A DNA stretch of 64,000 nt from Vicinamibacterales bacterium (GTDB lineage: Bacteria > Acidobacteriota > Vicinamibacteria > Vicinamibacterales > UBA8438), in assembly GCA_963663815.1 (NCBI GenBank), contig OY760734.1; one strand, 5' to 3'. Below the pieces are notes generated by a model, which worked only from the letters and a program-made list of their open reading frames with translations, had not been told where the DNA came from and made no database searches. A program made the position numbers and the translations under genes. Positions 6,801-62,120 of this stretch are shown piece after piece; the first letter of the stretch is position 1, and each line of letters begins with the position of its first letter.

Positions 6801-6854
6801 GCCGGGACCGGCGCGATGGCCCCCTCACCGCCGGCGTCTCTGCCGGAAGGGCAC

Positions 6855-7006
6855 GAGATCCCGGGGCGACAGCCCCGTTCGGCGAGGACCAGGTGATCGT
6901 TCGACTCGCCACGCTTCTCCACGACACAGGGCAGGAGATCCCGGGGCGACAGCCCCGTTCGGCGAGGACCAAGTGAACGTTCGACTCACCACGCTTCTCC
7001 ACGACA
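6855..7006 (+). repeat. Tandem direct repeat, 2 x 72 bp with 80-bp period, covering the ilvA RBS, start codon and first codons
   Basis: 6855-6926 and 6935-7006 differ at three positions. Each copy contains the hairpin GGGGC-GACA-GCCCC. Confidence 0.92.
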
Positions 7007-18856: not shown

Positions 18857-19071
18857 TCAGAACGTGGCGATCGGGTTGATCGGCGACCCGGTGCCGCGCG
18901 TGGGCAGCGGCGCCGCCGTCAGCAGGAACTCGTAGCGGTTCAGCGAGGCGGCCACCTCCCCCACCGCCTCCAGGTCCAGGTTGTCGAACAGCGGCATCCC
19001 CAGGTAGATGAGCGCGAAGCGGTGGAGCGGGCGGGGACCGAGGTCGTCCGCCGCCATCACGGCCGCCTCGG
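18857..19071 (-). pseudogene. 3' fragment of the cyclase gene (copy of 20640-20854)
   Basis: 215 bp nearly identical to 20640-20854, beginning exactly at the stop codon. Confidence 0.92.
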
Positions 19072-20048: not shown

Positions 20049-20485
20049 CGCTGCTCTATCTGGACACGAGCGCCCTGTTCAAGCGCTACGTCGAGGAGGC
20101 CGAGTCGGAAGCGCTGCTCGGCCGGATCGAAGACGCCCCGGCGGTTGGAACGGCCTTGGTCACGCGGGTCGAGGTGGCGGCGGCGCTGGCGAAGGCGGTG
20201 CGTGATGATCGCATGCCGTCTGCGGAAGCGCGCCAGGCCGAGAGCGATTTCCTCGACGACTGGACCGACTTCACGAGAATCGGATTGACGGACGATGTGG
20301 CGGCGCGCGCAGGCCGGCTCGCCTGGAAACACGACCTGCGAGGCTACGACGCCGCGCAGTTGGCGGCCGCGCTCGCGTGGCGCGAGGCCACCGAAGACGC
20401 AGAGGACCAGGTCGTGTTCGCCTGCTTCGACAACGATCTGCGCCGGGCAGCTGCGGCGGAAGGCCTCGAGACATGGCCGGCATGA
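20045..20485 (+). CDS. vapC: VapC family PIN-domain toxin
   Basis: YLDTSALFKRYVEE...VEVAAAL...LRGYDAAQLAAAL...FACFDNDL acidic PIN residues. Confidence 0.9.
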   Translation: MTLLYLDTSALFKRYVEEAESEALLGRIEDAPAVGTALVTRVEVAAALAKAVRDDRMPSAEARQAESDFLDDWTDFTRIGLTDDVAARAGRLAWKHDLRGYDAAQLAAALAWREATEDAEDQVVFACFDNDLRRAAAAEGLETWPA

Positions 20486-20639
20486 ACGCTGCCGACGTGT
20501 TGGTGCGGGGGCGGTCGCATGCTGTCTCTACCGCCCCCCCGGCGGGGCCTTGGCCCGGTGCCTGAGCCGCGCCGCCCCCTCGGTCGCTGCCGGCCGTCGT
20601 GGACGTGGCCGTCGTCTGCGGTATCCCGCTTGGCCGACC

Positions 20640-21689
20640 TCAGAACGTGGCGATCGGGTTGATCGGCGACCCGGTGCCGCGCGTGGGCAGCGGCGCCGCG
20701 GTCAGCAGGAACTCGTAGCGGTTCAGCGAGGCGGCCACCTCCCCCACCGCCTCAAGGTCCAGGTTGTCGAACAGCGGCATCCCCAGGTAGATGAGCGCGA
20801 AGCGGTGGAGCGGGCGGGGACCGAGGTCGTCCGCCGCCATCACGGCCGCCTCGGCGTCGGCCGGGGCCATGTCCTGGGCCGCCTCGCCGCCCAGTATCGC
20901 GATATCCCGTTCCCTCAGCCACGGAATCACCGACGCGTGCAGGCCGGCCGCCGCGTTGGCCACGTCCCAGGGCCCGACCTCGGCGCGCCGGGCCCAGCGG
21001 CCGGTGCGGATGACCACCACGTCGCCGGCGGAGACCGTCACCCCCGTCGCCGCCTCCCAGGCCTCGATGTCCTCGATGCGGATCGGCGTGCCGGGCTCCA
21101 GGTACGGCACGTTGCGGAACCGCGCCATGTCGATCAGCACGCCCCGGGTGACGATGCCCGACTTGGCGTTGTGCACGGTGTTCCTGGCGTGGCCGCCGCG
21201 GGCCGCGACCTCGGCGGGATCGGGCCGGTAGTCGTTGTAGGTCACGCCCTCGCCGATGAAGTTGTGGTTCAGGAAGTCGAGGTGGGTGTGGATGAACCCG
21301 TGGTACGCGATTCGGATCTCGTCGGCGGTGATGCCGAGCGGGGTGACCTGATAGGGCCGCGGGCCGTCGACCGTCGCCTCGGTCTCGGCGTCGCGCGCAA
21401 GCGAGACGGAGATGCCCTCGCGCACGAGGGCGGCGGCCTGCCTGCGCTTCTCAGGCGTGATGAGGTTCAGGGTGCCCCGCTCGTCGTCGGCGCCCCACCG
21501 GCCCCAGTTCGTCAGCTCCTGCTTCCACCGCTCGACGTCCGTCTGCGTGACCTGCTGTCCGCCGGCGGCTGGCGCCGAGCCCGGCTGGAAGCCCGGGGAG
21601 CGGACGGTCTGCCCGAACAACGGCACCGCGACGACGCACGCCAGCGCGACGACGCCGGCCAGACTCGATTGTCTCTTCGCTGTCCCCAT
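20640..21689 (-). CDS. Secreted cyclase family (kynurenine formamidase-like) metal-dependent hydrolase
   Basis: NWGRWGADDERGTLNLIT, HTHLD, GIVTRGVLID, GDVVVIRTG and GTGSPINPIA motifs; signal peptide. Confidence 0.92.
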   Translation of the reverse strand: MGTAKRQSSLAGVVALACVVAVPLFGQTVRSPGFQPGSAPAAGGQQVTQTDVERWKQELTNWGRWGADDERGTLNLITPEKRRQAAALVREGISVSLARDAETEATVDGPRPYQVTPLGITADEIRIAYHGFIHTHLDFLNHNFIGEGVTYNDYRPDPAEVAARGGHARNTVHNAKSGIVTRGVLIDMARFRNVPYLEPGTPIRIEDIEAWEAATGVTVSAGDVVVIRTGRWARRAEVGPWDVANAAAGLHASVIPWLRERDIAILGGEAAQDMAPADAEAAVMAADDLGPRPLHRFALIYLGMPLFDNLDLEAVGEVAASLNRYEFLLTAAPLPTRGTGSPINPIATF

Positions 21690-22123
21690 CGAACCCTCCC
21701 TGGCTCCGCCCCGTGGTCGCTGCCCGCTCCGCCCCGGCGCCCAGATGTTCCCCGTCCGACCCCGCTATTAGGCCGTTCACGGTCCCGCTCTCCCCGCTCC
21801 GCCGAGCACCGGCCCGATGATAGCCCACCCGGCGTCTGCAGGTCTCGGGGTGGACCGCGCGCACCGCCTCCGCGCCAAGCCGCAGTTCCGTCCGTCGGCG
21901 AGCGGTTGAATGTGCGTTCTTGGCACAACACGTATACTGTATGCTCTTTGGCCTTTTCTGGTACACAGGGAGACCGTATCCGTGATGTTCTCCGTCCGCG
22001 ACAGCCCGAAGCCCCTCGTCATGACAGCGACTTCGCCGTATTGGGCGCCGTCACGCAGTCTGAGCGAAGACCGCCGAAGCTGCCCCATTGGCGAACTGCG
22101 AGCAACAGGAGGAGCAAGCCACC

Positions 22124-22390
22124 ATGACAACGGCTGATGACATACGGCGGTACACCATCGAGCACTACATAGCCCCGGCCCGCGCCGCCGGTCACCAGGA
22201 AGTTAGCATTCGATTGGGCGATATACGTCGGAATATGGGACTCATGAACCCACTTCAGTCGGTACGCAGCGCGCTCGGCACCAAACTCCTTCAAGATGAA
22301 GCGGGTGTTGAGCCTCTTGCGCCCATTCATCCGCGCGCGGGTGCGGACACGTACTGCCGTTTTCGTATCCGGCCCCTTCCCCCACAGTAG
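22124..22390 (+). CDS. Small hypothetical protein (possible nucleic-acid-binding domain)
   Basis: GGAGG RBS, 88 codons, ADDIRRYTIEHYIAPARAAG..VSIRLGDI pattern. Family not assignable with certainty. Confidence 0.6.
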   Translation: MTTADDIRRYTIEHYIAPARAAGHQEVSIRLGDIRRNMGLMNPLQSVRSALGTKLLQDEAGVEPLAPIHPRAGADTYCRFRIRPLPPQ

Positions 22391-25800: not shown

Positions 25801-26282
25801 TTATCCCCAAGATTCGGTGGTGTCTTCGGAATCCATGCGGTGCTCGGGACTTGACAATCGAGGCCGGTGACCGTGCCTGTGCCCATGTGAACGTTGGCCG
25901 CCGACGCCGCGGCTCGCTTTGCGCCTCAAGCATGACAGGAAGGCGGGTGGATGGCAAGATGGCTCCCAAGGCCGGGGGTGCTGCCCAAGATCTACGCAGG
26001 CTTGGGCGGGAAGATCGGCTGAGTTGGAGGCGTAGCCGTGGATGGGTCGCGGGCGACTGGGGCCAGCGGACCGGGGCCGCGGTCGCGATGGGGGCAGAGA
26101 CGCGTTATGGCGGCGCCCTTTGTTCCTCGGGCACGGTGCTTGGTCGCACTTCGGGCGGGCGAGCGGTACTGTCGCGTAGCGGCGACGTCTGGAGGACGAT
26201 GTTCGGAGCGGGCTACGCCAAGGGGGCGGTGGGTGCCGGGTGCCGGCTGGCCCTAGCGATGCCCCCCCGCCTCGGCGACCAC

Positions 26283-27025
26283 GCCGCCGCGTTGGCCACG
26301 TCCCAAGGGCCGACCTCGGCACGCCGGGCCCAGCGGCCGGTGCGGATGACCACCACGTCGCCGGCGGAGACCGTCACCCCCGTCGCCGCCTCCCAGGCCT
26401 CGATGTCCTCGATGCGGATCGGCGTGCCGGGCTCCAGGTACGGCACATTCCGGAACCGCGCCATGTCGATGAGCACGCCCCGGGTGACGATGCCCGACTT
26501 GGCGTTGTGCACGGTGTTCCGGGCGTGGCCGCCGCGGGCCGCGACCTCGGCGGGATCGGGCCGGTAGTCGTTGTAGGTCACGCCCTCGCCGATGAAGTTG
26601 TGGTTCAGGAAGTCGAGGTGGGTGTGGATGAACCCGTGGTACGCGATTCGGATCTCGTCGGCGGTGATGCCGAGCGGGGTGACCTGATAGGGCCGCGGGC
26701 CGTCGACCGTCGCCTCGGTCTCGGCGTCGCGCGCGAGCGAGACGGAGATGCCCTCGCGCACGAGGGCGGCGGCCTGCCGGCGCTTGTCCGGCGTGATGAG
26801 GTTCAGGGTGCCCCGCTCGTCGTCGGCGCCCCACCGGCCCCAGTTCGTCAGCTCCTGCTTCCACCGCTCGACGTCCGTCTGCGTGACCCGCTGTCCGCCG
26901 GCGGCCGGCGTCGAGCCCGGCTGGAAGCGCGGGGAGCGGACGGTCTGCCCGAGCAACGGCACCGCGACGACGCCCGCCAGCGCGACGACGCCAACAAGGC
27001 TCGATCGTCTCCTGGTTGTTCCCAT
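26283..27025 (-). pseudogene. 5' three-quarters of a second cyclase gene copy (matches 20947-21689), truncated
   Basis: Near-identical coding sequence at constant offset 5336. Upstream non-coding homology continues to about 27175. Confidence 0.92.
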
Positions 27026-27175
27026 TGGTCCCCCCTGGTGCCGCTCCGTGGTCGATCGCGGCTCTGCGACCCGGAGCCCGAGACGTCCTCCGCCGATCGG
27101 ATCAGGCCATCGAACGGTTCCCGGTCCCGCGTGCCTCACGCCGCGAGGCACGGCCTGATGATAGTCCCTCCGGTT

Positions 27176-27290
27176 CGCTCAGCGCGTCGGCAGCATCGAC
27201 CAGCGCAGTGCGGGCGCGAACGTACAGCCGGTCAGGACCGCCAGACGTGCTCGTTCCACCCCATCCACGCCAGCATCTCTTCGCCTTGTG
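27176..27290 (-). pseudogene. Relic of the AbiEi-like/NTase gene junction
   Basis: Homologous to about 13896-14012 (GTGCGGGCGCGAACGTACAG..GGTCAGGACCGCCAGAC.TGCTCGTTCC). Confidence 0.8.
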
Positions 27291-27911
27291 CGCCGTACCA
27301 GCCGTCGCAGCGATACTATGTTCTGGACGTGGCGCGCATGGCGGACGCAGACTTGCCAGCGGGCAACCTGGTGTCGGCGCTCATCGGTCTGGAGAAGACG
27401 CGCGACGCGGCGGGCCTGCGCGAGGCGCTGAAGGCGCTGTCCGGCCTGCTGCGGCAGCAGAAGGGACGACGCGTTGACCCAGGCGTTCGTGACGTGGCTG
27501 CACCAGGGGTTGCGGCATGCGGGCCGGCTGCAGGCGGACGGAGAGAACCCCTTGGCGCAGTTACAGGAGACGCAGACGATGCTGGAAGAGACGGTGCGGG
27601 AATGGACGCGGGAATGGCTCGAGCAGGGCCGCGCCCAAGGCATCGAGCAGGGCCACGCCCAAGGCATGGAGAACGGCATCGAGAAGGGGCGCGTCCAGGG
27701 CATCGAGCAGGGCCGCCACGAAGAGCGGGCGTTGCTCTGCCGTCTGGCGGCCCGGAAATTCGATGCCGGGGCCGCCGAGGGGCTGGCCGCCGCCCTGGCC
27801 GGCGTCACCGACCCGGACCGCCTTGCGCGGGTCGGCGACTGGATCATCGAGTGCGCGTCGGCGTCGGACCTGCTGGCCCGCGTCCGCGGCGACAACGGGC
27901 CGGGCGGCTGA
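27290..27911 (+). pseudogene. Rpn-family recombination-promoting nuclease/putative transposase, 5'-truncated and frameshifted
   Basis: YQPSQRYYVLD..NLVSALIGLEK, then a shift at the GGG run 27463-27465, then LTQAFVTWL..MLEETVREWTREWLEQG(RAQGIEQG)..ERALLCRLAARKF..LARVGDWIIEC. Confidence 0.85.
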
Positions 27912-28293
27912 GGCGCCGGTGCGCCAGCGCCTCTCCCGGAGAGCGTTGCGTGGCGGCCGGCGGTGACCGCCAGCTCGGCGGCGCGGACCGGAGCCCCCCC
28001 CGCGCCCGGTGCGGGCTCGCTTTCTGACTCCGGGATGCCAGGCACCGGTCGACAGGCGCGTCCGGCGCGTGGGTGCGGCCCTGCTCGCCGCCGTCCTCAT
28101 CTGCGGCGTGACCGCCCTGACGGCCCTGCACGCGGATGCTCAGGCGCCACCGCCGACCGAACAACCGGCTACGATGTCCTCTACCCTTGCGGTACCCGAA
28201 CCGCCAGGGTCGCCGCAACCCTGAGAGTCCCGGGGCTGAGAGCACGAATCCCGGCGGGAACGCGCCAACGGGAAACGGGCCAGGATCGAGAGC

Positions 28294-38377: not shown

Positions 38378-38488
38378 CGCGTTCTCCTCCTCCAGTGAGC
38401 CGGCGCACTCAGCGCCGCGCCGCCGCCGCGTCCGCCAGGAAGCGGCAGCAGTCCGGGTCCGCGTCCGCCATCAGGTACGCCGGAGCAC

Positions 38489-39744
38489 TCACCGCCGAGC
38501 CGCCGCCGCGTCCTCCAGAAGCGGCAGCACCTCGGGGGTCGCGTCCGCCATCAGGCGGTTCAGGTACGCATCGTCGTCCGGCCGGCCCGGGTAGTGCAGG
38601 CCGGCCCCGGCTTCGAGCAACAGCCGGACGACCTCGACGTAGGCGTCGCTACGGTCTCGGGCGCCGCCCGAGTAGCGCGCGCCGTGAACCGCCCACCCGA
38701 GCGGCGAGCTGTCGTGGCACGCATCGAAGACGTCGAGCGGCGCGCCGGCCTCCAGCAGCAGCCGGGCGTTGTCGTGCTGGCCGAACCACGCGGCCTGATG
38801 CAGCGGCGTCCCCTCGTCGAGGCCCGTCGCCGTTAGATCCGCGCCCGCGGCGATGAGCAGGACAACGGGGGCGGTGCCGTTCCTCCCGGAGACGTCGGCG
38901 AGCAGGCGGTCCTCCTCGGGATTGCCGGTGCGCGCGCAGCCGGCGTGGGACTCGAGCAGACGCCGGGCCTCGTCGAGCCTCCCGCCGACGATGGCCACGG
39001 CCAGCCGGTCGGCGGAGGCGAGAGTCGTGTCGGCTCCGCGCTCGGCCAACAGGCTCGCCAGCTCGGAGAACCCGCGGCGCGCGGCGTGGGCGTAGGCGGT
39101 CTTGCCGCCCGCGGTGCGCGCGTCGATGTCGGCGCCGTGGTCCAGCAGACGCCGCACCGCGCCGGCGCGCCGCCGGCGCGCCGCCAGGTGAAGCGGGGTC
39201 TCGGCGGCAGCGCCCGCCCGCGCCGTCAGGTCCGCCCCCGCCTCAAGCCGGCGGGCGAGCTCGGCGTCGCCGTCCCGGCCGTAGGCGTTGTCGAGGAACT
39301 CGTGCAAGCTCGGCTCTGCCTGCGCCCCGCCGGGGGCGAGGCCCATCTGCGCGAACGCCGCGAGGTTGTCCCACTCTGCCCACGCCTCGACGAGGCGTCC
39401 CGCCTCGAGGCGGTAGACAGCGAGGTAGCCGATCCGCACCGGCCGGCCGGGGCATGGTCGCCGAAGGGACCGGTCTGGGTGCCCGCGAGGAGATGGCGCG
39501 CGGCCACCCGGTCTCCCTCGGCGACGAGGTCCTCGACCGTCTCCCGCGCGTCGGGGAACGTGAGGTACTCGTTGCGGAGGAACCACTTCAGATCGTCGCG
39601 GCTGCGCACCCCCGGCTCGCCGGCCGCGTCGCTGTGCCGAGCGAAATCCGGAGACACAAGGCCGTCCAGCGCGTCCCAGTCCTGCGCGTTGACGGCGTCG
39701 ACGAACGCCAGGACGATCCGCTTGTTGCGCTCGGGGTCGCTCAT
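38489..39744 (-). pseudogene. SnoaL-like ester cyclase fused to an ankyrin-repeat domain, frameshifted at about 39439-39452
   Basis: The ester cyclase N-part (NKRIVLAF...FPD...VEDLVAEGDRVAAR) continues in another frame (GRPVRIGYLAVYRL..GRLVEAW...DNL). That frame runs without a stop into ankyrin repeats (ETPLHLAA, GTPLHQAA, LLEAGA). Confidence 0.75.
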
Positions 39745-52547: not shown

Positions 52548-55217
52548 ATGAACCGCTTGCGCATCTTCGCCGTTCGACTGCTGAATCTTGTCCGCCGCGG
52601 GTCCCTCGAACGCGAGCTCGATGCTGAGCTCCAGGCGTACGTGGAGCTGGACGCGGCCGAGAACATCCGGCGCGGCGTGGCGCCGAAGGAAGCGCGCCGC
52701 ATGGCGCTCGCCCGTCTGGGAGGCCTCGACATGGTCAAGGAACAATGTCGCGACGTACACCGTTTCCGTGCCCTCGACGACCTGTGGCGGGACTTCCTGT
52801 TCGGGTTCCGCCGCCTGCGCGCGCGCCCGATTCTCGCTGGCGTGGCGATCGCGGTCCTGGCGATCGGCATCGGTGCGAACACGGTCATCTTCGCGCTGCT
52901 CGACGCTCTGCTCCTGCGTCCGCTGCCCGGCCCGGACCCCCATCGCCTGGCCGTCGTGTTCACGAGCGATTCCTCGAGCGGGCAGCCGAGCGCGAACTCG
53001 TATCCGGACTTTCTCGACATTCGCGAGTCCACCGGCGACGTGTTCGAGCAAGTCACCCTGGCGTCTCTCAACCCTGTCGGCGTCCGCATCGGCGGAGGAG
53101 ACCCCCGGGTCATGTCCGCCCAGATAGTGGAGCCCAACTACTTCGATACGATGGGGTTGAGGCCGGTCCATGGGCGTGCGTTCGAGGCGGCCGAGACCAG
53201 CCCGGTCGCCGTGATCAGCAACGGCGTGTGGCTCTCGGAGTTCAGCGGCGATCCGTCGGTGCTGGGCCGCGCAATCACCGTCAACGGGTTGCCGTTCACC
53301 GTCGTGGGCGTGGCGCCCGTCGAGCTGGCGGGCCTGTACGGCGGCACGCAAGGCCTCCTCCGCGTCGACGTCTGGTTGCCCGCGGCCTTCGAGCAGTCGG
53401 TACGGCTGGGTGACGCCAGGCAGGAGCGGCGCGGCTCGCGCGGTTACGACATCGTCGGCCGGCTGCGCGAGGGCGTCGGGATCGACGAGGCCCAGGCGCG
53501 TCTGGCCGTCGTCGGTCGACGTCTTCATCAGTCGTACCCCGAGTCTTGGACGGGTCTCTCCGGGCAGCCGCGAGCCCTGACGATCCGGGCAGCGAACGAA
53601 GCACGCCTGCCCTCTTTCGCCTTCGGGCCTCTGGCCGTCCTGTCGGGACTGGTCGGCACTTTCCTGCTCATCGTCTGCGCCAACATCTCGGGCCTTCTGC
53701 TCGCCGACGCGGCGGTCCGCCGTCGCGAGATGTCGATTCGGCAGGCCCTGGGCGCGAGCCGGTTCAGACTGGTCCGGCAGGTCGCCGTGGAGAGCCTCGG
53801 TCTCGGTCTGGTCGCGGGGGGGCTGGGCGTCGCCGCGGCGGCGGTCGCCATCAGCTTCGTGACGTTGCCGGTATCGGACCTGCCGTTGCCCCTGCCCCTG
53901 CAACTGAACCTCGAGCCCAGTTGGCGCCTGCTCGCGGCCGCGCTGGTCGCGTCGTCGGGCGTCGGCCTCCTGGTGGGGTTTCTTCCCGCGCTGTACGCAA
54001 CCCGGGCCAGGCTCCGCCTCGGCCGATTCTCACAGACGAGGCTGCGCAACGCGCTGACTGCGATGCAGGCGACCGCCGCCGTCTTTCTCCTGATCATCGC
54101 GGGGGCGTTCGCGCGCAGCATCGTGGCCGCGTACGCAATCCCGCTCGGCTACGACTCGGACGAGCTGGCGCTCGTCACCGTCGATCTGGAGGCGGCCGGG
54201 TACTCCGAAGATCGCGGTCGCGCGTATCTCCGACAGGTGTTCGAGCAGGTGCCGACGGCCGAGGCATCGGAAGCGCCGTTCCTGTCGCTCCAGGCGCAGC
54301 GACGTCGTGGCATGGATGTCGACGGGTATCGGCCCCGGGCTGGAGAGGACCTGGGCGTGTACGCGAACGTCGTCAGTCCCGGTTACGTCCGCTCGATGGG
54401 GGTGCCCCTCCTTCGCGGTCGGGACCTGGAACCCGGAGAGCGAAACGCGGTGCTCGTCAACCAGGCGTTCGTCGAGCGGTTCTGGTCCGATCGGAATGCC
54501 GTCGGCAGTCGACTGCGCCGACTGACCCGGGATCAGTTGCTTCGTCAAGTACGGGGCGGTCCCGACGCACGTTCCACCGGTTCCCCGTGGTCGACCGTGG
54601 TCGGCGTGGTCGACGACGGCCATTTCGTGTCGTTTCGAGAGGATGCGGTTCCCGTCGTGTTCGAGTCCATGGAGGACGTCTACACCCCTCAGGTCACGTT
54701 CCACATCCGGGGCGCATCGGCCGAAGCGGCACGAGAGGGCATTGGCCGAATCGATCCCGGCGTGCCCGTCGTGAACGTGGCGACGATGACGGAAATGGTC
54801 GACACGGCGCTGTTGCCCGCGCGGATTGCGGCCGTCGTGAGCGGCTTCGTCGGGGCCGGCGGCCTGCTGCTCGCGTGCATCGGGCTCTTCGGCACGCTGA
54901 GCTACGTCGTGGCGCTGCGCGGCCCGGAGATCGGCCTCCGCATCGCGCTCGGGGCCCGGCCGCTGCAGATCATCCGGCTCGTCGCCGGGAGCGCGAGCGT
55001 GAAGCTGGTGACGGTCGGCGTCGTCGTCGGAGCGGGACTGGGAAGCGGTGTCTCGCCGCTGCTTCAGTCGCAGTTCTCCCGCGCCGGCGGCGTGGACCCG
55101 GTCGCGCTCGCAGGGGCGGCGGCGTGCCTCGCGCTCGTGGCATCCGTCGCCGTCGGCCTGCCGGTCTCGCGCGCCCTCCGGATCGATCCTGCGGAGGTCT
55201 TGCGCGTCGAGGAGTAG
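52548..55217 (+). CDS. ABC transporter permease, ADOP (duplicated MacB/FtsX) family, paralog 1
   Basis: N-terminal ERELDAELQ..ARRMA..LGG, LAIGIGANTVIF, CANISGLLL..RRREMSIRQALGASR, and EIGLRIALGA motifs. Confidence 0.93.
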   Translation: MNRLRIFAVRLLNLVRRGSLERELDAELQAYVELDAAENIRRGVAPKEARRMALARLGGLDMVKEQCRDVHRFRALDDLWRDFLFGFRRLRARPILAGVAIAVLAIGIGANTVIFALLDALLLRPLPGPDPHRLAVVFTSDSSSGQPSANSYPDFLDIRESTGDVFEQVTLASLNPVGVRIGGGDPRVMSAQIVEPNYFDTMGLRPVHGRAFEAAETSPVAVISNGVWLSEFSGDPSVLGRAITVNGLPFTVVGVAPVELAGLYGGTQGLLRVDVWLPAAFEQSVRLGDARQERRGSRGYDIVGRLREGVGIDEAQARLAVVGRRLHQSYPESWTGLSGQPRALTIRAANEARLPSFAFGPLAVLSGLVGTFLLIVCANISGLLLADAAVRRREMSIRQALGASRFRLVRQVAVESLGLGLVAGGLGVAAAAVAISFVTLPVSDLPLPLPLQLNLEPSWRLLAAALVASSGVGLLVGFLPALYATRARLRLGRFSQTRLRNALTAMQATAAVFLLIIAGAFARSIVAAYAIPLGYDSDELALVTVDLEAAGYSEDRGRAYLRQVFEQVPTAEASEAPFLSLQAQRRRGMDVDGYRPRAGEDLGVYANVVSPGYVRSMGVPLLRGRDLEPGERNAVLVNQAFVERFWSDRNAVGSRLRRLTRDQLLRQVRGGPDARSTGSPWSTVVGVVDDGHFVSFREDAVPVVFESMEDVYTPQVTFHIRGASAEAAREGIGRIDPGVPVVNVATMTEMVDTALLPARIAAVVSGFVGAGGLLLACIGLFGTLSYVVALRGPEIGLRIALGARPLQIIRLVAGSASVKLVTVGVVVGAGLGSGVSPLLQSQFSRAGGVDPVALAGAAACLALVASVAVGLPVSRALRIDPAEVLRVEE

Positions 55218-55259: not shown

Positions 55260-55598
55260 ATGACCATGAAGAACACGCAGATCGTGCTCGTTGCCACCGC
55301 GCTGATGGGCGTGGCCGGCGCGGCCGCGGGCCAGGAAACCGAGGAGCTCGTGCGCACCATCCCGATGGAACCCGGAGGACGATTGACGCTCCGCAACGTC
55401 GAGGGCGAGATCACCGTGACCGGGGTGGACGGTGACGACCTGACGATTCGGGCGACGAAGCGGACGAGCCGACGCGGGGGCGACGACGACGCGTTGACCC
55501 GGGTCGAGATCGAGGAGCGAGGCAACCGGGTGATCTCCACCGGCGAAGACGGAACAGCGACTGGTGAGTTGGCGCCCTTCGCGGAGGAGTCGCCATGA
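55260..55598 (+). pseudogene. Truncated DUF4097 / adhesin-like beta-strand repeat secreted protein
   Basis: Signal peptide and GGRLTLRNVEGEITVTG..D...IRATK pattern. It ends after about 110 aa, overlapping the next start. Confidence 0.6.
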
Positions 55599-58204
55599 GC
55601 CGCTTGCGGATCTTCGCCGTTCGCCTGCTGAATCTGTTCCGCCGCGGGCCATTCGAACGCGCGCTCGATGCAGAACTCCAGGCGTACCTGGAGCTGGACG
55701 TCGACGAGAACATCCGGCGCGGCATGGCTCCGAAAGAAGCGCGCCGCACGGCGCTGGCCCGCTTGGGAGGCCCGGAAATGATCCCGATCAAGGAACAATG
55801 CCGCGACGTACACCGCTTCCGCGCCGCCGCCGACCTGTGGCGGGACTTCCAGTTCGGGTTCCGGCGCCTGCGCGCGCGCCCGATTCTCGCCGGCGTGGCG
55901 ATCGCGGTGCTGGCCATCGGCATCGGTGCGAACACCGTCGTCTTCTCGCTGGTCGAAGCCCTGCTCCTGCGTCCCTCGCCCGGCGCGGACCCGCATCGGT
56001 TGGCCGTGGTGTCCACGAGCTACGGCGGCCTACAGGCTCTGAACTCCTATCCGGACTATCTCGATATTCGCGAGTCCACGCGCGACTTGTTCGAGCACGT
56101 CACCGCCATGTCTCTCACTCCGGTCGGCGTACGGTTCGGCGGAGAGACCCGGGTCATGTCCGCCCGCATAGTGGAGCCCAACTACTTCGATACGATGGGC
56201 CTGAGGCCGGTCCTCGGGCGCGGGTTCGAGGCGTCCGAGACCAGCCCCGTCGCGGTCATCGGACACGGAACGTGGCTTTCCGAGTTCGGCGGCGATCCGT
56301 CGGTGCTGGGCCGTGCGTTGGTCATCAACGGGTCGCCCTTCACCGTCGTGGGGGTGGCGCCGGCCGAGCTGGCTGTCACGCGAGACCTCGTCCGCGTCGA
56401 CGTCTGGCTGCCCACGGCCTTCGAGCAATCGGTACGGCTCGGTGACGCCCGACAGGAACAGCGGGGCACCCGTGGCTACGGCATAGTCGGTCGACTGCAC
56501 GACGGCGTCACGATCGACGAGGCACGGACGCGCGTGGCGGTCGTCGGTCGACGCCTCCAGCAGGCATATCCCGACGAGTGGACGGGCCCCTCCGGACAGC
56601 CGCTGGCCCTGACGGTCAGAGAGGCGAACGACGCCCGCCTGCCCTTTTCCGTATACGGGCCGCTGGCCGTGCTGACCGGGCTGGTCGGCACGCTCCTGCT
56701 CATCGTCTGCGCCAACATCTCGGGCCTCCTGCTCGCCGACGCGTCGTTTCGCCGTCGCGAGATGTCGATTCGACGGGCTCTGGGCGCGAGCCGGTTCAGA
56801 CTGGTCCGGCAGGTCTCCGTGGAGAGCCTCGGCCTCGGTCTGGCCGCGGGGGGCCTGGGCGTTGCGGCGGCGGCGGTCGCCGTCAGGTTCGTTGCGCTGC
56901 TGGTGTCGGACCTGCCCCTGCCGGTCCCGCTGCAGCTTGACCTCGAGGCCGGCTGGGGCCTGCTCGCGGCGTCGCTGGCCGTGTCATCGGGCGTCGGCCT
57001 CCTCGTCGGGTTCCTTCCGGCCCTGTACGCCACTCAAGCCAGGCCGCGTCTCGGAGGGTTCTCGCAGACGAGGCTGCGCAACACCCTGACCGCGATGCAG
57101 GCGACCACCGCCGTCTTTCTCCTCATCATCGCGGGATCCTTCGCGCGCAGTATCGTGACCGCGTACGCCGTCCCGCTCGGCTACGACGCCGCTGGGCTGG
57201 CGCTCGTCACCGTCGATCTGGAGGCGGCCGGGTACTCCGAAGATCGCGGTCGCGCGTATCTCCGACGCGTGTTGGAGCAAGTGCCGATGGCCGAAGCATC
57301 AAGAGCGCCGTTCCTGTCTCTCCAGGCGCTGCGATTCTTTATCGTGGATGTCGACGGGTACCGATTCGGGCCCGGAGAGGACCCGCTGATAAACGTGAAC
57401 GCCGTCAGTCCCGGTTACGTTCGCCTGATGGGCGTGCCCCTCCTTCAGGGTCGGGATCTCGAACCCGGAGAGAAAAACGCGGTGCTCGTCAACCGCGCGT
57501 TCGCGGAGCGGTTCTGGCCCGGGCAGAATGCCGTCGGCAGGCGACTGCGCGGACGTTCCACCGGCGGCCTCCCGTGGTCGACGGTGGTCGGCGTGGTCGA
57601 AGACGGCCAGTTCGTGCCGTTTCGAGAGGATGCGGTTCCCGTCGTGTTCGAGTCCACGGACGACGTCTACTCCGCTCAGGTCACGTTTCACATCCGGGGC
57701 GTATCGACCGAAGCGGCACGAGACGGCATCGCTCGAATCGACCCGGGCGTGCCCGTCGTGAACGTGGCGACGATGACCGAAATGGTCGGCACGGCGCTGT
57801 TGCCGGCGTGGATCGGGGCCGTCGTGAGCGGCTTCGTCGGGGCCGGCGGCCTGCTGCTCGCGTGCATCGGACTCTTCGGCACGCTGAGCTACGTCGTGGT
57901 GCAGCGGGCCCCGGAGATCGGTCTCCGCATCGCGCTCGGGGCCCGGCCGCTGCAGATCATCCGGCTGGTGGCGGGGAGCACGAGCGTGAAGCTGGCGACG
58001 GTCGGCGTCGTCGTCGGAGCTGCACTGGGCAGCGGCGTCTCGCCGCTGCTTCAGGCCCAGTTCTCCCGCGCCGGCGGCGTGGACCCGGTCGCGCTGGCGG
58101 GGGCGGCGGCGTGCCTCGTGCTGATGGCATCCGTCGCCGTCGGCCTGCCGGTCGCGCGCGCCCTCAGGATCGATCCCGCGGAGGTCTTGCGCGTCGAGGA
58201 GTAG
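55595..58204 (+). CDS. ABC transporter permease, ADOP family, paralog 2
   Basis: Collinear, highly similar to 52548-55217 with the same motifs; ATGA overlap. Confidence 0.93.
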   Translation: MSRLRIFAVRLLNLFRRGPFERALDAELQAYLELDVDENIRRGMAPKEARRTALARLGGPEMIPIKEQCRDVHRFRAAADLWRDFQFGFRRLRARPILAGVAIAVLAIGIGANTVVFSLVEALLLRPSPGADPHRLAVVSTSYGGLQALNSYPDYLDIRESTRDLFEHVTAMSLTPVGVRFGGETRVMSARIVEPNYFDTMGLRPVLGRGFEASETSPVAVIGHGTWLSEFGGDPSVLGRALVINGSPFTVVGVAPAELAVTRDLVRVDVWLPTAFEQSVRLGDARQEQRGTRGYGIVGRLHDGVTIDEARTRVAVVGRRLQQAYPDEWTGPSGQPLALTVREANDARLPFSVYGPLAVLTGLVGTLLLIVCANISGLLLADASFRRREMSIRRALGASRFRLVRQVSVESLGLGLAAGGLGVAAAAVAVRFVALLVSDLPLPVPLQLDLEAGWGLLAASLAVSSGVGLLVGFLPALYATQARPRLGGFSQTRLRNTLTAMQATTAVFLLIIAGSFARSIVTAYAVPLGYDAAGLALVTVDLEAAGYSEDRGRAYLRRVLEQVPMAEASRAPFLSLQALRFFIVDVDGYRFGPGEDPLINVNAVSPGYVRLMGVPLLQGRDLEPGEKNAVLVNRAFAERFWPGQNAVGRRLRGRSTGGLPWSTVVGVVEDGQFVPFREDAVPVVFESTDDVYSAQVTFHIRGVSTEAARDGIARIDPGVPVVNVATMTEMVGTALLPAWIGAVVSGFVGAGGLLLACIGLFGTLSYVVVQRAPEIGLRIALGARPLQIIRLVAGSTSVKLATVGVVVGAALGSGVSPLLQAQFSRAGGVDPVALAGAAACLVLMASVAVGLPVARALRIDPAEVLRVEE

Positions 58205-58387
58205 GTGCGGGCAATCGCTGGGCGACCTGCTCGGCGGCGGCCGTCTCCGGTGCCGGCTGCCGTGTCTCTCGGGCACGTCCGCCAGCACCGCATGGACACG
58301 CGCACAACGCCGATCGCCTCCCGCGGCCTGAGTCCGTACTGCCGCGGGTGCCGCCGGCTTTCAGGAGTCTCAAGGAGGATCCAGCCA

Positions 58388-59089
<702 letters not shown>

Positions 59090-59231: not shown

Positions 59232-59642
59232 ATGGCTGAGAGACCGACGGACATCCCGCGCGGCGCGCGCGCCCCCGGCTACCCCCGTGCCCCCGGACAT
59301 CGCATCGCCTTCGTGCCCCGCCACGTCCGCGTGCGCGTGGCCGCGGGCGGGACCGAGATCGCCGCGACCACCGACGTCGTGGCCCTCGAGGAGAAGGGGT
59401 ACCCGACGCGCCACTATCTGGCCCGCGACGGCGTCGACATGTCCCGCCTGGAGAAGACGGGCAAGACGACGTTCTGCCCCTTCAAGGGGCTGGCCACCTA
59501 CTACCTGATCCACGGCCCCGAAGGCGAGGTCCGCGACGCCGCGTGGAGCTACGAGCAGCCGTATCGCGAGGCCGAGCTCGTGCGCGACCGCCTCGCGTTC
59601 GATGCGGACGCGGTGAAGGAGACGGTCGGCTCGACGCCGTGA
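59232..59642 (+). CDS. DUF427 domain protein
   Basis: LEEKGYPTRHYL..D, TFCPFKGLATYY and AAWSYEQP motifs. Confidence 0.9.
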   Translation: MAERPTDIPRGARAPGYPRAPGHRIAFVPRHVRVRVAAGGTEIAATTDVVALEEKGYPTRHYLARDGVDMSRLEKTGKTTFCPFKGLATYYLIHGPEGEVRDAAWSYEQPYREAELVRDRLAFDADAVKETVGSTP

Positions 59643-59728
59643 CCGGGTCACGGCGGGGGTCGAGGCGCCGGTCACCAAGGGGCTGACAGCCCGTGGCGAA
59701 AGCCGAGCGTCGGCGGCGCCACCGACGG

Positions 59729-59800
59729 GGTCTCGAGATCCGGAGGCTGGATGTCGACCGTCAGGCCCCACTCGAACCGCGACCGGAGCCGTTCCTCGAG
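59729..59800 (-). other. Isolated 72-bp dnaA coding fragment in intergenic DNA
   Basis: Minus strand translates to [24 protein letters not shown], the conserved DnaA AAA+ arginine-finger region. The flanking codons do not continue DnaA. Confidence 0.88.
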
Positions 59801-59849
59801 GAATCGGACCGGGGCGCCGGCCTCGCGCCCGGCGTGAGAGAATCCGTTC

Positions 59850-60587
59850 GTGCGTTTCGCGACGACGCGCTGGAGCATGGTGCTCGCGGCCGGCGCTGGT
59901 CCGTCAGAACGCGCCGACCGGGCCCTCGCGGAGCTGTGCGCCGGCTACTGGCATCCCCTCTACGCCTACGCTCGGCGGCGCGGCTACGACCCGGACGACG
60001 CCTGCGACCTCACCCAGGCCTTCTTCGCGCGACTCATCGAGCAGCGGTCACTTGCAACCGCGGACCCGGTGCGCGGGCGGTTCCGCAGCTTCCTGCTCAC
60101 CTCCATGAAGAACTTCCTCGCCAGCCAGTGGCGGCGAGAGTCCGCGGCAAAGCGCGGCGGCGGCGCGGACCTCGTGTCCATCGACGCGACCGATGCAGAG
60201 AACCGCTATCGGGTCGAGCCGGCCGACAACCGTACGCCCGAGGCGGAGTACGAACGGCGCTGGGCGCTCGCCCTGATCAGGCGGGCGTTGAACGACGTGC
60301 GGCGCGGCTACGCCGACCGGGGACAGATCGAACTCTTCGGCGCTCTCAAGGCGTACTTGGCCGCCGACATCGGAGAGGTGCCCTACGACGAGCTGTCTCG
60401 GCGGCTCGACCGGAGCGAGGCGGCCCTGCGGACGGCGCTGTCGCGGCTGCGCGCGCGCTGGCGGACCCGGCTGCGCGAGGTCGTCGCGGAGACGGTCAAG
60501 GACGAGCACCTGGTCGATGACGAACTCACCGATCTCGTCCGGGCCCTCGCCCCGCTGCGTGAGGGCGAGTCGCGCCGGCGCCTGTAA
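59850..60587 (+). CDS. ECF sigma-70 factor, Ser/Thr-kinase-associated type
   Basis: [25 protein letters not shown]...[15 protein letters not shown], and a sigma4 HTH ([23 protein letters not shown]). Confidence 0.9.
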
Positions 60588-60617: not shown

Positions 60618-62120
60618 ATGACCGATACACGAACCTGTTCCCGTTGCCACGCCGAGATCCCCGCCGATGCGCCACCCGGAGTTTGTCCCGCGTGCGCGCT
60701 GCGCGCCGGGCTCGGCCCGGAGACCTCACCCGAGGCCACCCGGCAGCAAGCAGCTCCCGGCGGGCTCCCGAGCCCCGAGGAGCTGCGCCGCCGGCTCCCC
60801 GACCTCGACGACTTCGAGCTGATCGGCCCCGGCGGCATGGGGACGGTCTACCGGGCGAGGCACAAGCCCCTGGACCGTCCCGTCGCGGTGAAGGTGCTCC
60901 ACGCCCACCTGCAGGACGACCCGTCGTTCGCCGAGCGCTTCGCCCGCGAGGCGCGGACGATGGCGCGCCTCGACCATCCGCACATCGTCCGGGTCTACGA
61001 CTTCGGACACCGGGAGGGCCTCTACTACCTCGTGATGGAGCTCGTGGACGGGGTGAGCCTGCGGCAGGCGCTGGCCGACGGCGGGTTCACCCCGGCGCAG
61101 TCCCTCGCGATCGTGCCGCGCATCTGCGAGGCGCTGCAGTACGCGCACGACCAGGGGGTGGTGCACCGCGACATCAAGCCCGAGAACATCCTGCTCGACC
61201 GCTCCGGGTCGCCGAAGATCGTCGACTTCGGCCTCGCCCTGCTGACCCGATCGGCCACCGAGACGCGTCTGACCCGGCAGGCCCGCGTGCTGGGCACCCC
61301 GCACTACATGGCGCCCGAGCAGATCGAGCGCCCCGCCGAGGTGGACCACCGCGCCGACATCTACGCCCTCGGGGTCGTCTTCTACGAGATGCTGACCGGC
61401 GAGCTGCCGCTCGGCCGCTTCCCCCCGCCGTCGCAGAGGGTCGAGATCGACGTCAGCCTCGACGAGGTCGTGCTGCGCACCCTCGAGAAGGAGCCGCGCC
61501 GGCGGTACCAGCACGCGCGCGAGCTGAGCCGCGACGTCGAGCGGTCGGCGACCGCAGCCGGGACCCCGCACGATCGGCGTCCGCCGCCGGAACGGGGCTG
61601 GACCCCCACCCGCCGGGGCCGGCGGCGCGGCCGGCGGCCGCGGCGTCCCGACTTCGAGTACCGATCGAGCCGGACCGTCTGGGGCCTGCCGCTGATCCAC
61701 GTCGCCCACAACCACGATCGCGACGGCTGGCACGACACGCCGGCGGGCGTCGCCCGGGGCATCGTCGCCATCGGCGACATGGCGATCGGACTCGTCGCCA
61801 TCGGCGGGATCGCCCTGGGCGGCGTCGCGATCGGCGGCATGCCGGTCGGCTTCATCAGTCTCGGCGGCATGGCGTTCGGGCTGCTGATGGCCGTCGGCGG
61901 ATTGGCGGCGGGGGTGTTCGCGGCCGGCGGCATGACGTTCGGGGTGGTGGCGACCGGCTTCCGTGCAAGGGCCCTGCTGGACCTGACGCCCGAAGCGATG
62001 CAGTGGGTGTCGTTCGCCGCCTGGGGACTGGCCACCGCCGTGGTGACGGCAATCGCGGCGGGACTGATAATCTGGTGGCGCGACGCCGATGACGGCGACG
62101 CCGGCGACGCCGCGACGTGA
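60618..62120 (+). CDS. Hanks-type Ser/Thr protein kinase with N-terminal Zn-ribbon and C-terminal membrane domain
   Basis: CSRC..CPAC, IGPGGMGTVY, VAVK, HRDIKPEN, DFG, GTPHYMAPE, and a Gly-rich hydrophobic C-terminus. Confidence 0.94.
   Translation: MTDTRTCSRCHAEIPADAPPGVCPACALRAGLGPETSPEATRQQAAPGGLPSPEELRRRLPDLDDFELIGPGGMGTVYRARHKPLDRPVAVKVLHAHLQDDPSFAERFAREARTMARLDHPHIVRVYDFGHREGLYYLVMELVDGVSLRQALADGGFTPAQSLAIVPRICEALQYAHDQGVVHRDIKPENILLDRSGSPKIVDFGLALLTRSATETRLTRQARVLGTPHYMAPEQIERPAEVDHRADIYALGVVFYEMLTGELPLGRFPPPSQRVEIDVSLDEVVLRTLEKEPRRRYQHARELSRDVERSATAAGTPHDRRPPPERGWTPTRRGRRRGRRPRRPDFEYRSSRTVWGLPLIHVAHNHDRDGWHDTPAGVARGIVAIGDMAIGLVAIGGIALGGVAIGGMPVGFISLGGMAFGLLMAVGGLAAGVFAAGGMTFGVVATGFRARALLDLTPEAMQWVSFAAWGLATAVVTAIAAGLIIWWRDADDGDAGDAAT

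Follow-up and report, generated by a model that had tools for sequence, protein, structure and literature searches.

A 76-nt dnaA-derived insertion between a DUF427 gene and an ECF sigma factor gene in a Vicinamibacterales chromosome, probably a scar of illegitimate recombination

Introduction

A 64,000-nt stretch of chromosome from a Vicinamibacterales bacterium, referred to here as the window, carries 76 nt of dnaA sequence between a DUF427 gene and the gene of an ECF-type sigma factor (Table 1). The tract likely arose when about 75 bp of own-lineage dnaA entered an indel-prone spacer in inverted orientation; this ectopic insertion would be young and confined to one lineage, and would persist as a neutral scar of illegitimate recombination. 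The insert adds a new and well-resolved case to a class of mutational event that is already known. Read as a scar, it shows cleanly how, in nature, a bacterial chromosome can be patched with a short stretch of one of its own essential genes, and the donor, the empty site and the two junctions can each be given to the nucleotide. To our knowledge, patching of this kind is familiar from eukaryotes and has been achieved experimentally in bacteria, but it has rarely been traced in wild genomes.

Table 1. Coordinates of the dnaA-derived insert and of the neighbouring features in the window
Feature	Position	Strand	Remarks
ADOP/MacB-type permease	55595-58204	+	
ABC ATPase	58205-59089	+	
DUF427 gene (PF04248)	59232-59642	+	Upstream of spacer
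68-codon ORF containing the fragment	59672-59878	-	Overlaps sigma gene start; called as gene P0001 in source annotation
Variable block, first ~20 bp of ~87 bp	59680-59704	+	From alignment with orthologs
Inverted repeat CGTCGG-N8-CCGACG	59708-59727	+	Target DNA, not insert; ends 1 nt before insertion point
dnaA-derived insert, 76 nt	59728-59803	-	25 residues, Box VII / arginine-finger region, residues ~266-290 of Vicinamibacterales DnaA
CTCGAG, Leu-Glu codons of ...DLET in dnaA frame	59732-59737		Within donor 8-nt palindrome TCTCGAGA
CTCGAG, Leu-Glu codons of LEERL	59795-59800		Centre of donor 14-nt perfect palindrome GTTCCTCGAGGAAC
ECF-type sigma-70 family gene	59850-60587	+	Downstream of spacer; GTG start aligned with ortholog starts
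Ser/Thr protein kinase gene	60618-62120	+	Syntenic partner of sigma gene

Identity and extent of the insert

The window has a G+C content of 70%, and the spacer in which the tract lies measures 207 bp. A sequence-only reading of the window had described a 72-bp dnaA fragment in antisense orientation, free of stop codons and with abrupt ends. Orientation, open frame and sharp ends were all borne out, the minus strand at 59729-59800 being translated into 24 residues with no stop codon, but the extent had to be corrected, as local alignment at the DNA level gave 76 nt of similarity to dnaA rather than 72, with a sharp end on both sides.

A phmmer search against all PDB sequences matched the fragment to DnaA of Bacillus subtilis (8bv3/8btg, E = 2e-7), where the aligned peptide corresponds to chain residues 254-281 of 8btg. 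When a full-length Vicinamibacterales DnaA, taken from the 460-codon dnaA reading frame of locus L060, was compared with the window by tblastn, a single match was obtained (E = 1.7e-11), covering DnaA residues 267-290. The peptide is Box VII, the part of the AAA+ domain in which the arginine finger is located. The earlier assignment to the arginine-finger region of DnaA agrees with the PDB match and with the direct comparisons with dnaA genes, and it is on these two that the assignment rests, because the 24-residue fragment went undetected in Pfam at E <= 0.1. The tract is present as a single copy within the window, and no dnaA gene and no other DnaA-like piece was found in any frame of the 64 kb (tblastn with full DnaA at E <= 10, which returned only 59729-59809).

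It is scarcely credible that the tract is the remnant of a decayed second dnaA copy or that the 68-codon ORF encodes a small protein with a DnaA Box VII motif. The fragment does stand in frame without stop codons, and the ORF was called as a gene; however, there is no DnaA similarity outside the 76 nt in any frame, and the orthologous loci described below show an empty site and not longer remnants. A homology search with the 68-aa product returned only truncated true DnaA proteins and no analogous fragments, and the ORF runs into the start of the sigma gene. Long open frames are also frequent on both strands at 70% GC, with 59 ORFs of at least 40 aa listed in 8 kb. The ORF is most likely spurious, because no relative has it. 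This calls for some caution in annotation, since the fragment gave rise to an open frame that was then called as a gene.

Origin of the donor sequence

A scan of one genome per GTDB species with a degenerate pattern for 17 residues of the fragment gave 59 loci, nearly all of them from Anaerolineae-type Chloroflexota or from Vicinamibacterales (Acidobacteriota). Apart from L046 (see below), each of these loci belongs to a reading frame in which DnaA similarity continues to either side. The pattern sees this dnaA segment only, captures from other genes being invisible to the scan.

The comparison of the fragment with dnaA across taxa, which had been proposed in the sequence-only reading, was carried out on these loci. 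Over 72 nt, the window sequence was identical at 64-71 positions to the 21 Vicinamibacterales dnaA genes, compared with 48-64 positions for dnaA of Anaerolineae and other phyla. Over the full 76 nt, identity reached 75/76 with the dnaA genes of L063 (OZ242323.1) and L066 (blastn, E = 9e-36) and 74/76 with that of L060. The sole mismatch to L063 is GGG vs GGC (Gly), a state that is present in other Vicinamibacterales dnaA genes. Because of the identity of 75/76 to Vicinamibacterales dnaA, against 48-64/72 to other phyla, and also because the closest homologs of the window sigma factor (85-90% identity) sit in Vicinamibacterales chromosomes, the donor, as judged by nucleotide identity, is the dnaA of the organism's own lineage. 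Very probably it is the genome's own dnaA gene, a step that is made from the congeners. The suggestion that an RNA is aimed at a foreign dnaA was not borne out, the best identity being to own-lineage dnaA.

BLAST searches against plasmids and phages found distant dnaA only (78-81% identity) and a viral scan gave no match, while a scan of JGI metagenomes yielded six matches, all of them intact dnaA, and no further fragments. There is no close plasmid, phage or viral match, and a mobile-element or foreign donor is therefore not indicated.

Empty sites and junctions

Seven orthologous DUF427-ECF sigma-kinase loci were recovered (L001-L005 and L071-L074), with sigma factors 85-90% identical to that of the window. 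The order DUF427-sigma-kinase-glyoxalase-PIG-L is the same across these loci; in the window, too, the kinase gene is followed by a glyoxalase-fold gene and then by a PIG-L gene. A comparison of the orthologous DUF427-ECF spacers had been suggested as a check on the fragment, and it showed the dnaA tract to be missing in 7/7 loci, with both flanks in register and a clean gap of 74-76 nt (alignments A1 and A2). With ^ marking the insertion point, the empty site in the orthologs reads ...GCGCCACCGACGG^(A/G)TCGGACCGGGC..., with the core CCGACGG^(A/G)TCGGACC, and the filled site in the window, with the insert in brackets, reads ...CCGACGG[G GTCTCGAG ... CCTCGAGGA A]TCGGACC....

The overlap at the junctions, which were read from one assembly for the window, amounts to 0-1 nt, the G on the left and the A on the right being assignable to donor or target. 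Hence, the net insertion is given as 74-76 nt, because 1 nt per junction could come from either. Neither a target-site duplication nor terminal repeats were found at either window junction, and in-register extended microhomology was absent there, with 2/12 matches beyond the left joint. On these alignments, the dnaA tract is an insertion relative to seven empty orthologous sites. Such a precise presence/absence polymorphism with an empty site is what is expected of ectopic fragment capture, as are a near-identical donor (75/76 in the congeners L063 and L066, which points to an origin in the same genome) and junctions with minimal microhomology, no duplication and no terminal repeats.

It had been stated beforehand that a tract with many mismatches to every dnaA and absent in relatives would be a neutral scar; the absence in relatives was found, but the many mismatches were not (75/76). 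From its absence in relatives, together with the lack of RNA signals described below, the insert is probably selectively neutral, and we infer that its intact frame and near-identity to dnaA reflect youth and not constraint.

A single assembly of the window genome underlies the insert, so that a chimeric long read or a polishing error might have put the 76 nt of dnaA into the spacer. Such an assembly or consensus artefact is held to be very unlikely; a precise 76-nt insertion with both flanks in the ortholog register is rare for assembly chimeras, and four independent assemblies agree on the analogous fragment of a related species. At 59811-59814, immediately after the insert, the window reads GGGG where all orthologs have GGG; the extra base could be a genuine indel of 1 nt or a homopolymer error of long-read sequencing.

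Two further classes of inserted DNA were considered and rejected. A transposable element or MITE does not agree with the lack of terminal inverted repeats and of a duplication, with the single copy in the window and with the lack of a close plasmid, phage or viral match. A CRISPR spacer or DGR template was set aside in view of the lack of flanking repeats and of the few mismatches, which are not adenine-specific.

The DUF427-sigma spacer is, by alignment, prone to indels, because a block of ~87 bp varies among the loci: L005, L071 and L072 have all of it, the window retains 20 bp, and L001, L004, L073 and L074 have none. An extra ~67 bp in L005 was considered as a second capture, and this was rejected, as the block recurs in L071 and L072 and its first 20 bp are still present in the window. 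In L071 (2700-2800) and L072 (2704-2800), a tandem duplication of 74-76 bp spans the DUF427 stop codon. The kinase gene of L071 is also truncated, and an 82-aa product has been called for it.

CTCGAG sites

The presence of CTCGAG close to both ends of the fragment had led to the proposal that a captured XhoI-type restriction fragment was involved. The two sites are present near the ends, but they are Leu-Glu codons of the donor that lie 3-4 nt inside the insert, and most Vicinamibacterales dnaA genes have both of them at matching positions. An XhoI-type fragment was rejected because the copied tract continues beyond both sites, by 4 nt and 3 nt, so that its ends are not at cleavage positions; the L046 copy extends ~20 nt past both. 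In the 64-kb window as a whole, CTCGAG occurs 47 times, against ~22 expected from base composition by our own arithmetic.

A second dnaA fragment

Contig OZ242323.1 gave two matches in the pattern scan, namely its true dnaA (L063) and a fragment (L046). The latter consists of 107 nt (36 residues; L046:5868-5974) with non-DnaA flanks and stop codons and is 105/107 identical to the dnaA of the same genome. Its neighbours on either side, a dCTP deaminase gene and a gene for an Alpha-E domain protein, are convergent. Three further contigs from other samples (L075, L076 and L077), one of which ends part-way through the fragment, carry it with the two differences unchanged. Because it was assembled in four samples, the fragment is regarded as real and fixed in its species. 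On its removal in silico, a 12-nt perfect palindrome, CCTGGCGCCAGG, is reconstructed at the junction, and at one end donor and target share a 5-nt overlap, GCGCC. L078 was considered as the corresponding empty site and rejected on account of a different synteny downstream of DCD, and the empty site is thus a reconstructed one only.

The L046 fragment is in sense orientation relative to its upstream gene, and its end points differ from those of the window insert. Because both end points and orientation differ, the two inserts are, on this comparison, separate events, with L046 fully containing the 76-nt dnaA stretch of the window. An independent copy of the same dnaA segment was thus found in 1 of ~21 related genomes. 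By our own estimate, this recurrence is unexpected under uniform random capture unless there are hundreds of captured fragments per genome, and, because it is unlikely under uniform random capture, it points to a donor hotspot or to selection or retention. The recurrence is the only observation that resists the neutral reading, and the L046 fragment is the only part of the present material that is potentially of wider importance: if dnaA were over-represented among captured fragments, this would indicate either that dnaA contains a fragile site or that ectopic RNA complementary to dnaA is selected for.

Mutational bias would account for the recurrence and refine the explanation of the insert as a scar, if this dnaA segment were a preferred donor by virtue of its palindromes (GTTCCTCGAGGAAC, TCTCGAGA and ATCGCGAT) or of its proximity to the origin. 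This refinement is possible but doubtful. It draws on the overlap of two independent captures in the same ~76 nt of dnaA, on the window insert ending 1-3 nt from the outer edges of GTTCCTCGAGGAAC and TCTCGAGA, and on the L046 copy ending 4 nt past the third donor palindrome. However, the scan pattern could find only this dnaA segment, and the metagenome scan, with its six intact dnaA genes, gave no extra fragments. The closeness of the insert ends to the donor palindromes is also given little weight, because shuffled sequences fold as well as the donor stretch does as single-stranded DNA (z = -0.20) and because DNA of 70% GC often contains short palindromes.

RNA structure and a possible regulatory role

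In the sequence-only reading, the fragment was part of a hairpin-rich leader and might act as a structured guide or antisense RNA. All the hairpins listed there exist in the sequence, but as a set they are not above chance: the segment 59637-59849 (213 nt) has a minimum free energy of -108.5 kcal/mol, compared with -105.6 +/- 5.3 for dinucleotide shuffles (z = -0.55), and 52/200 shuffles fold at least as well. The covariance analysis that had been proposed for these hairpins was carried out on the consensus of the aligned orthologs and gave 0/43 compensatory pairs, with a covariation term of +1.05. Of the listed hairpins, neither the first nor the fourth is conserved among the orthologs, and the left arm of the inverted repeat that ends just before the insertion point is not conserved in most of them. 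Rfam assigned no family to the region, the only match being GA-cis (E = 3.3), far under its gathering score and outside the feature. No promoter or intrinsic terminator pattern was found in a scan of sigma-70 type, ECF-type promoters being outside its range. A structured guide or antisense RNA was therefore not borne out, the tract being missing in 7/7 orthologs and lacking fold, covariation, Rfam, promoter and terminator signals. A riboswitch-like leader was rejected as well, since it is not conserved in the orthologs and has no structure, covariation or Rfam support.

Two other stems are conserved. The inverted repeat GCTCGAC ... GTCGAGG straddles the DUF427 stop codon (59616-59672) and is invariant or nearly so in 8/8 loci, and a second conserved stem would enclose the GTG start of the sigma gene (~59825-59855). 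They could be a terminator or attenuator and a start-codon-sequestering hairpin, respectively; no covariation was seen in either among the eight loci.

As had been pointed out, any plus-strand read-through transcript would, going by the sequence alone, carry 76 nt complementary to dnaA mRNA. The complementarity expected of an antisense RNA is thus present (76 nt, 75/76 to congeneric dnaA, antisense to the coding sense), while the conservation expected of a regulatory RNA is not (0/7 orthologous loci), nor are structure, covariation or a known family. A functional trans-acting antisense module would require that DUF427 read-through or a sigma 5' leader pairs with dnaA mRNA and so links DnaA synthesis with the stress circuit of the ECF sigma factor and the kinase. 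Cleavage of the duplex by RNase III would be one conceivable means, and the recurrent dnaA fragments would be exapted regulators. This is considered improbable. The insert is antisense relative to the flanking plus-strand genes and has a complementarity of 75-76/76 to own-lineage dnaA; a second, independent copy of the same segment is kept in another species (four samples), where read-through from the convergent Alpha-E gene would give a 3' extension with the copy in antisense; and antisense control of dnaA is known in other bacteria, although it is reported there as cis-encoded (PMC12112137, PMC3634043). Against these points stand the absence of the insert from 7/7 orthologous loci and the lack of a promoter or terminator match, an Rfam match, a fold signal or covariation at its leader. 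Moreover, the surroundings of the two fragments are unrelated, their orientations with respect to the nearest upstream gene are opposite, and their target would be a mid-CDS segment of dnaA, not the translation-initiation region.

A broader and likewise improbable proposal is that Vicinamibacterales repeatedly acquire and keep ectopic Box VII copies of dnaA, two independent captures at unrelated loci being seen in two species. Transcribed from neighbouring genes, such copies could serve in trans as antisense or sense RNAs that adjust the synthesis of DnaA. If it were true, replication initiation would be linked through the window copy with a stress module made up of an ECF sigma factor and a Ser-Thr kinase, and regulatory RNAs in bacteria could be born by capture of target-gene fragments.

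Proposed mechanism

A recombination scar had been one of the alternatives named in the sequence-only reading, and this is the alternative that is favoured by the empty sites, the own-lineage donor and the junctions. Illegitimate recombination is proposed because of the clean insertion, the junctions of 0-1 nt, the absence of a duplication and the hairpin-forming neighbour in the target. It would have started from a break or stalled fork adjoining this hairpin-forming sequence, and ~75 bp of dnaA would then have been copied or ligated in inverted orientation into the DUF427-sigma spacer.

Three routes may be envisaged. End joining could trap a free DNA fragment as filler DNA, a single-stranded ectopic fragment could be integrated at the fork as a microindel of the SPDIR type, or the polymerase could switch template. 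As regards a template switch, local events of similar length do occur in these genomes, namely the 80-bp duplications in the window (see below) and the duplication in L071 and L072. As regards SPDIR, the insert of 76 nt falls within the size range of 3 to ~100 bp, and L046, at 107 nt, lies at its upper edge; the microhomology expected at both joints is not present, however, with ~1 nt per window joint, and the 1-nt junction overlaps fit SPDIR poorly.

Relation to known systems

Bacterial NHEJ can capture DNA fragments at chromosomal breaks, as demonstrated by experiment for Ku/LigD in Sinorhizobium meliloti (PMC6379672). The window insert is similar in that a non-homologous piece, for which either orientation is possible, is found at a single site with little or no junction homology and without a duplication or element termini. 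In the S. meliloti work, an electroporated cassette was captured at an I-SceI break, whereas the window holds a natural event with a 76-nt chromosomal gene fragment, for which both Ku/LigD and the break are putative.

SPDIR produces microindels of 3 to ~100 bp from intragenomic ectopic single-stranded DNA at replication forks, according to a preprint that describes work from 2016 (bioRxiv 10.1101/2023.11.22.568220). The likeness is that a short ectopic intragenomic patch gives a microindel of heterologous sequence. In that text, however, SPDIR joints have microhomology or extended microhomology at both crossovers, compared with ~1 nt at each joint in the window and the 5-nt GCGCC at one end of L046.

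In eukaryotes, breaks are patched by organelle or retroelement DNA, as in NUMTs and the capture of Ty cDNA (work cited in PMC6379672). These are also recognisable pieces of a familiar gene or genome that form inert non-coding patches and can be dated by donor identity, but they are eukaryotic, come from other donors and are usually longer than the window insert.

Antisense RNAs on dnaA have been described in B. subtilis (PMC12112137) and, as AsdA, in S. Typhi (PMC3634043); they are cis-encoded, with expression and effect reported. An RNA complementary to dnaA mRNA is possible in principle at the window locus as well. The RNAs of those accounts are, however, encoded in cis at the dnaA locus, whereas the window tract is ectopic, occurs in one genome and is known from its sequence alone.

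Small variable segments of bacterial genomes were surveyed in three bacterial species, where ~10% were flanked by direct repeats and a large fraction was reportedly attributed to illegitimate recombination (PMC2884548). These segments resemble the insert in being short, specific to a strain or species and placed in collinear regions. That survey did not trace them to an essential-gene donor, whereas the donor of the window insert is identified to the nucleotide.

Other features of the window

ARAGORN called an 89-nt tRNA-Ala(GGC) at 1584-1672 on the minus strand, inside a region of long ORFs. This is longer than is usual for a bacterial tRNA-Ala; the call may be false, or the gene may be an atypical one.

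In non-coding DNA, tandem duplications of two copies each, with a period of 80 bp, occupy 6848-7006 and 38399-38555 (94% and 87% matches). One lies just upstream of a threonine dehydratase gene, and the other has a MutY-like gene on one side and an ankyrin-repeat gene on the other. The two duplications have unrelated units, which come close in size to the 76-bp dnaA insert.

Direct repeats of at least 215-300 nt with 98-99% identity were found at 18857-19071 / 20640-20854 and at 20947-21246 / 26283-26582. They fall within or beside the large ORFs 20295-22127 and 26240-28027, for which there was no Pfam match, and their near-identity suggests recently duplicated or gene-converted paralogs. Tandem paralogous genes for ADOP/MacB-type permeases occupy 52548-55217 and 55595-58204, with 80-92% DNA identity over most of their length.
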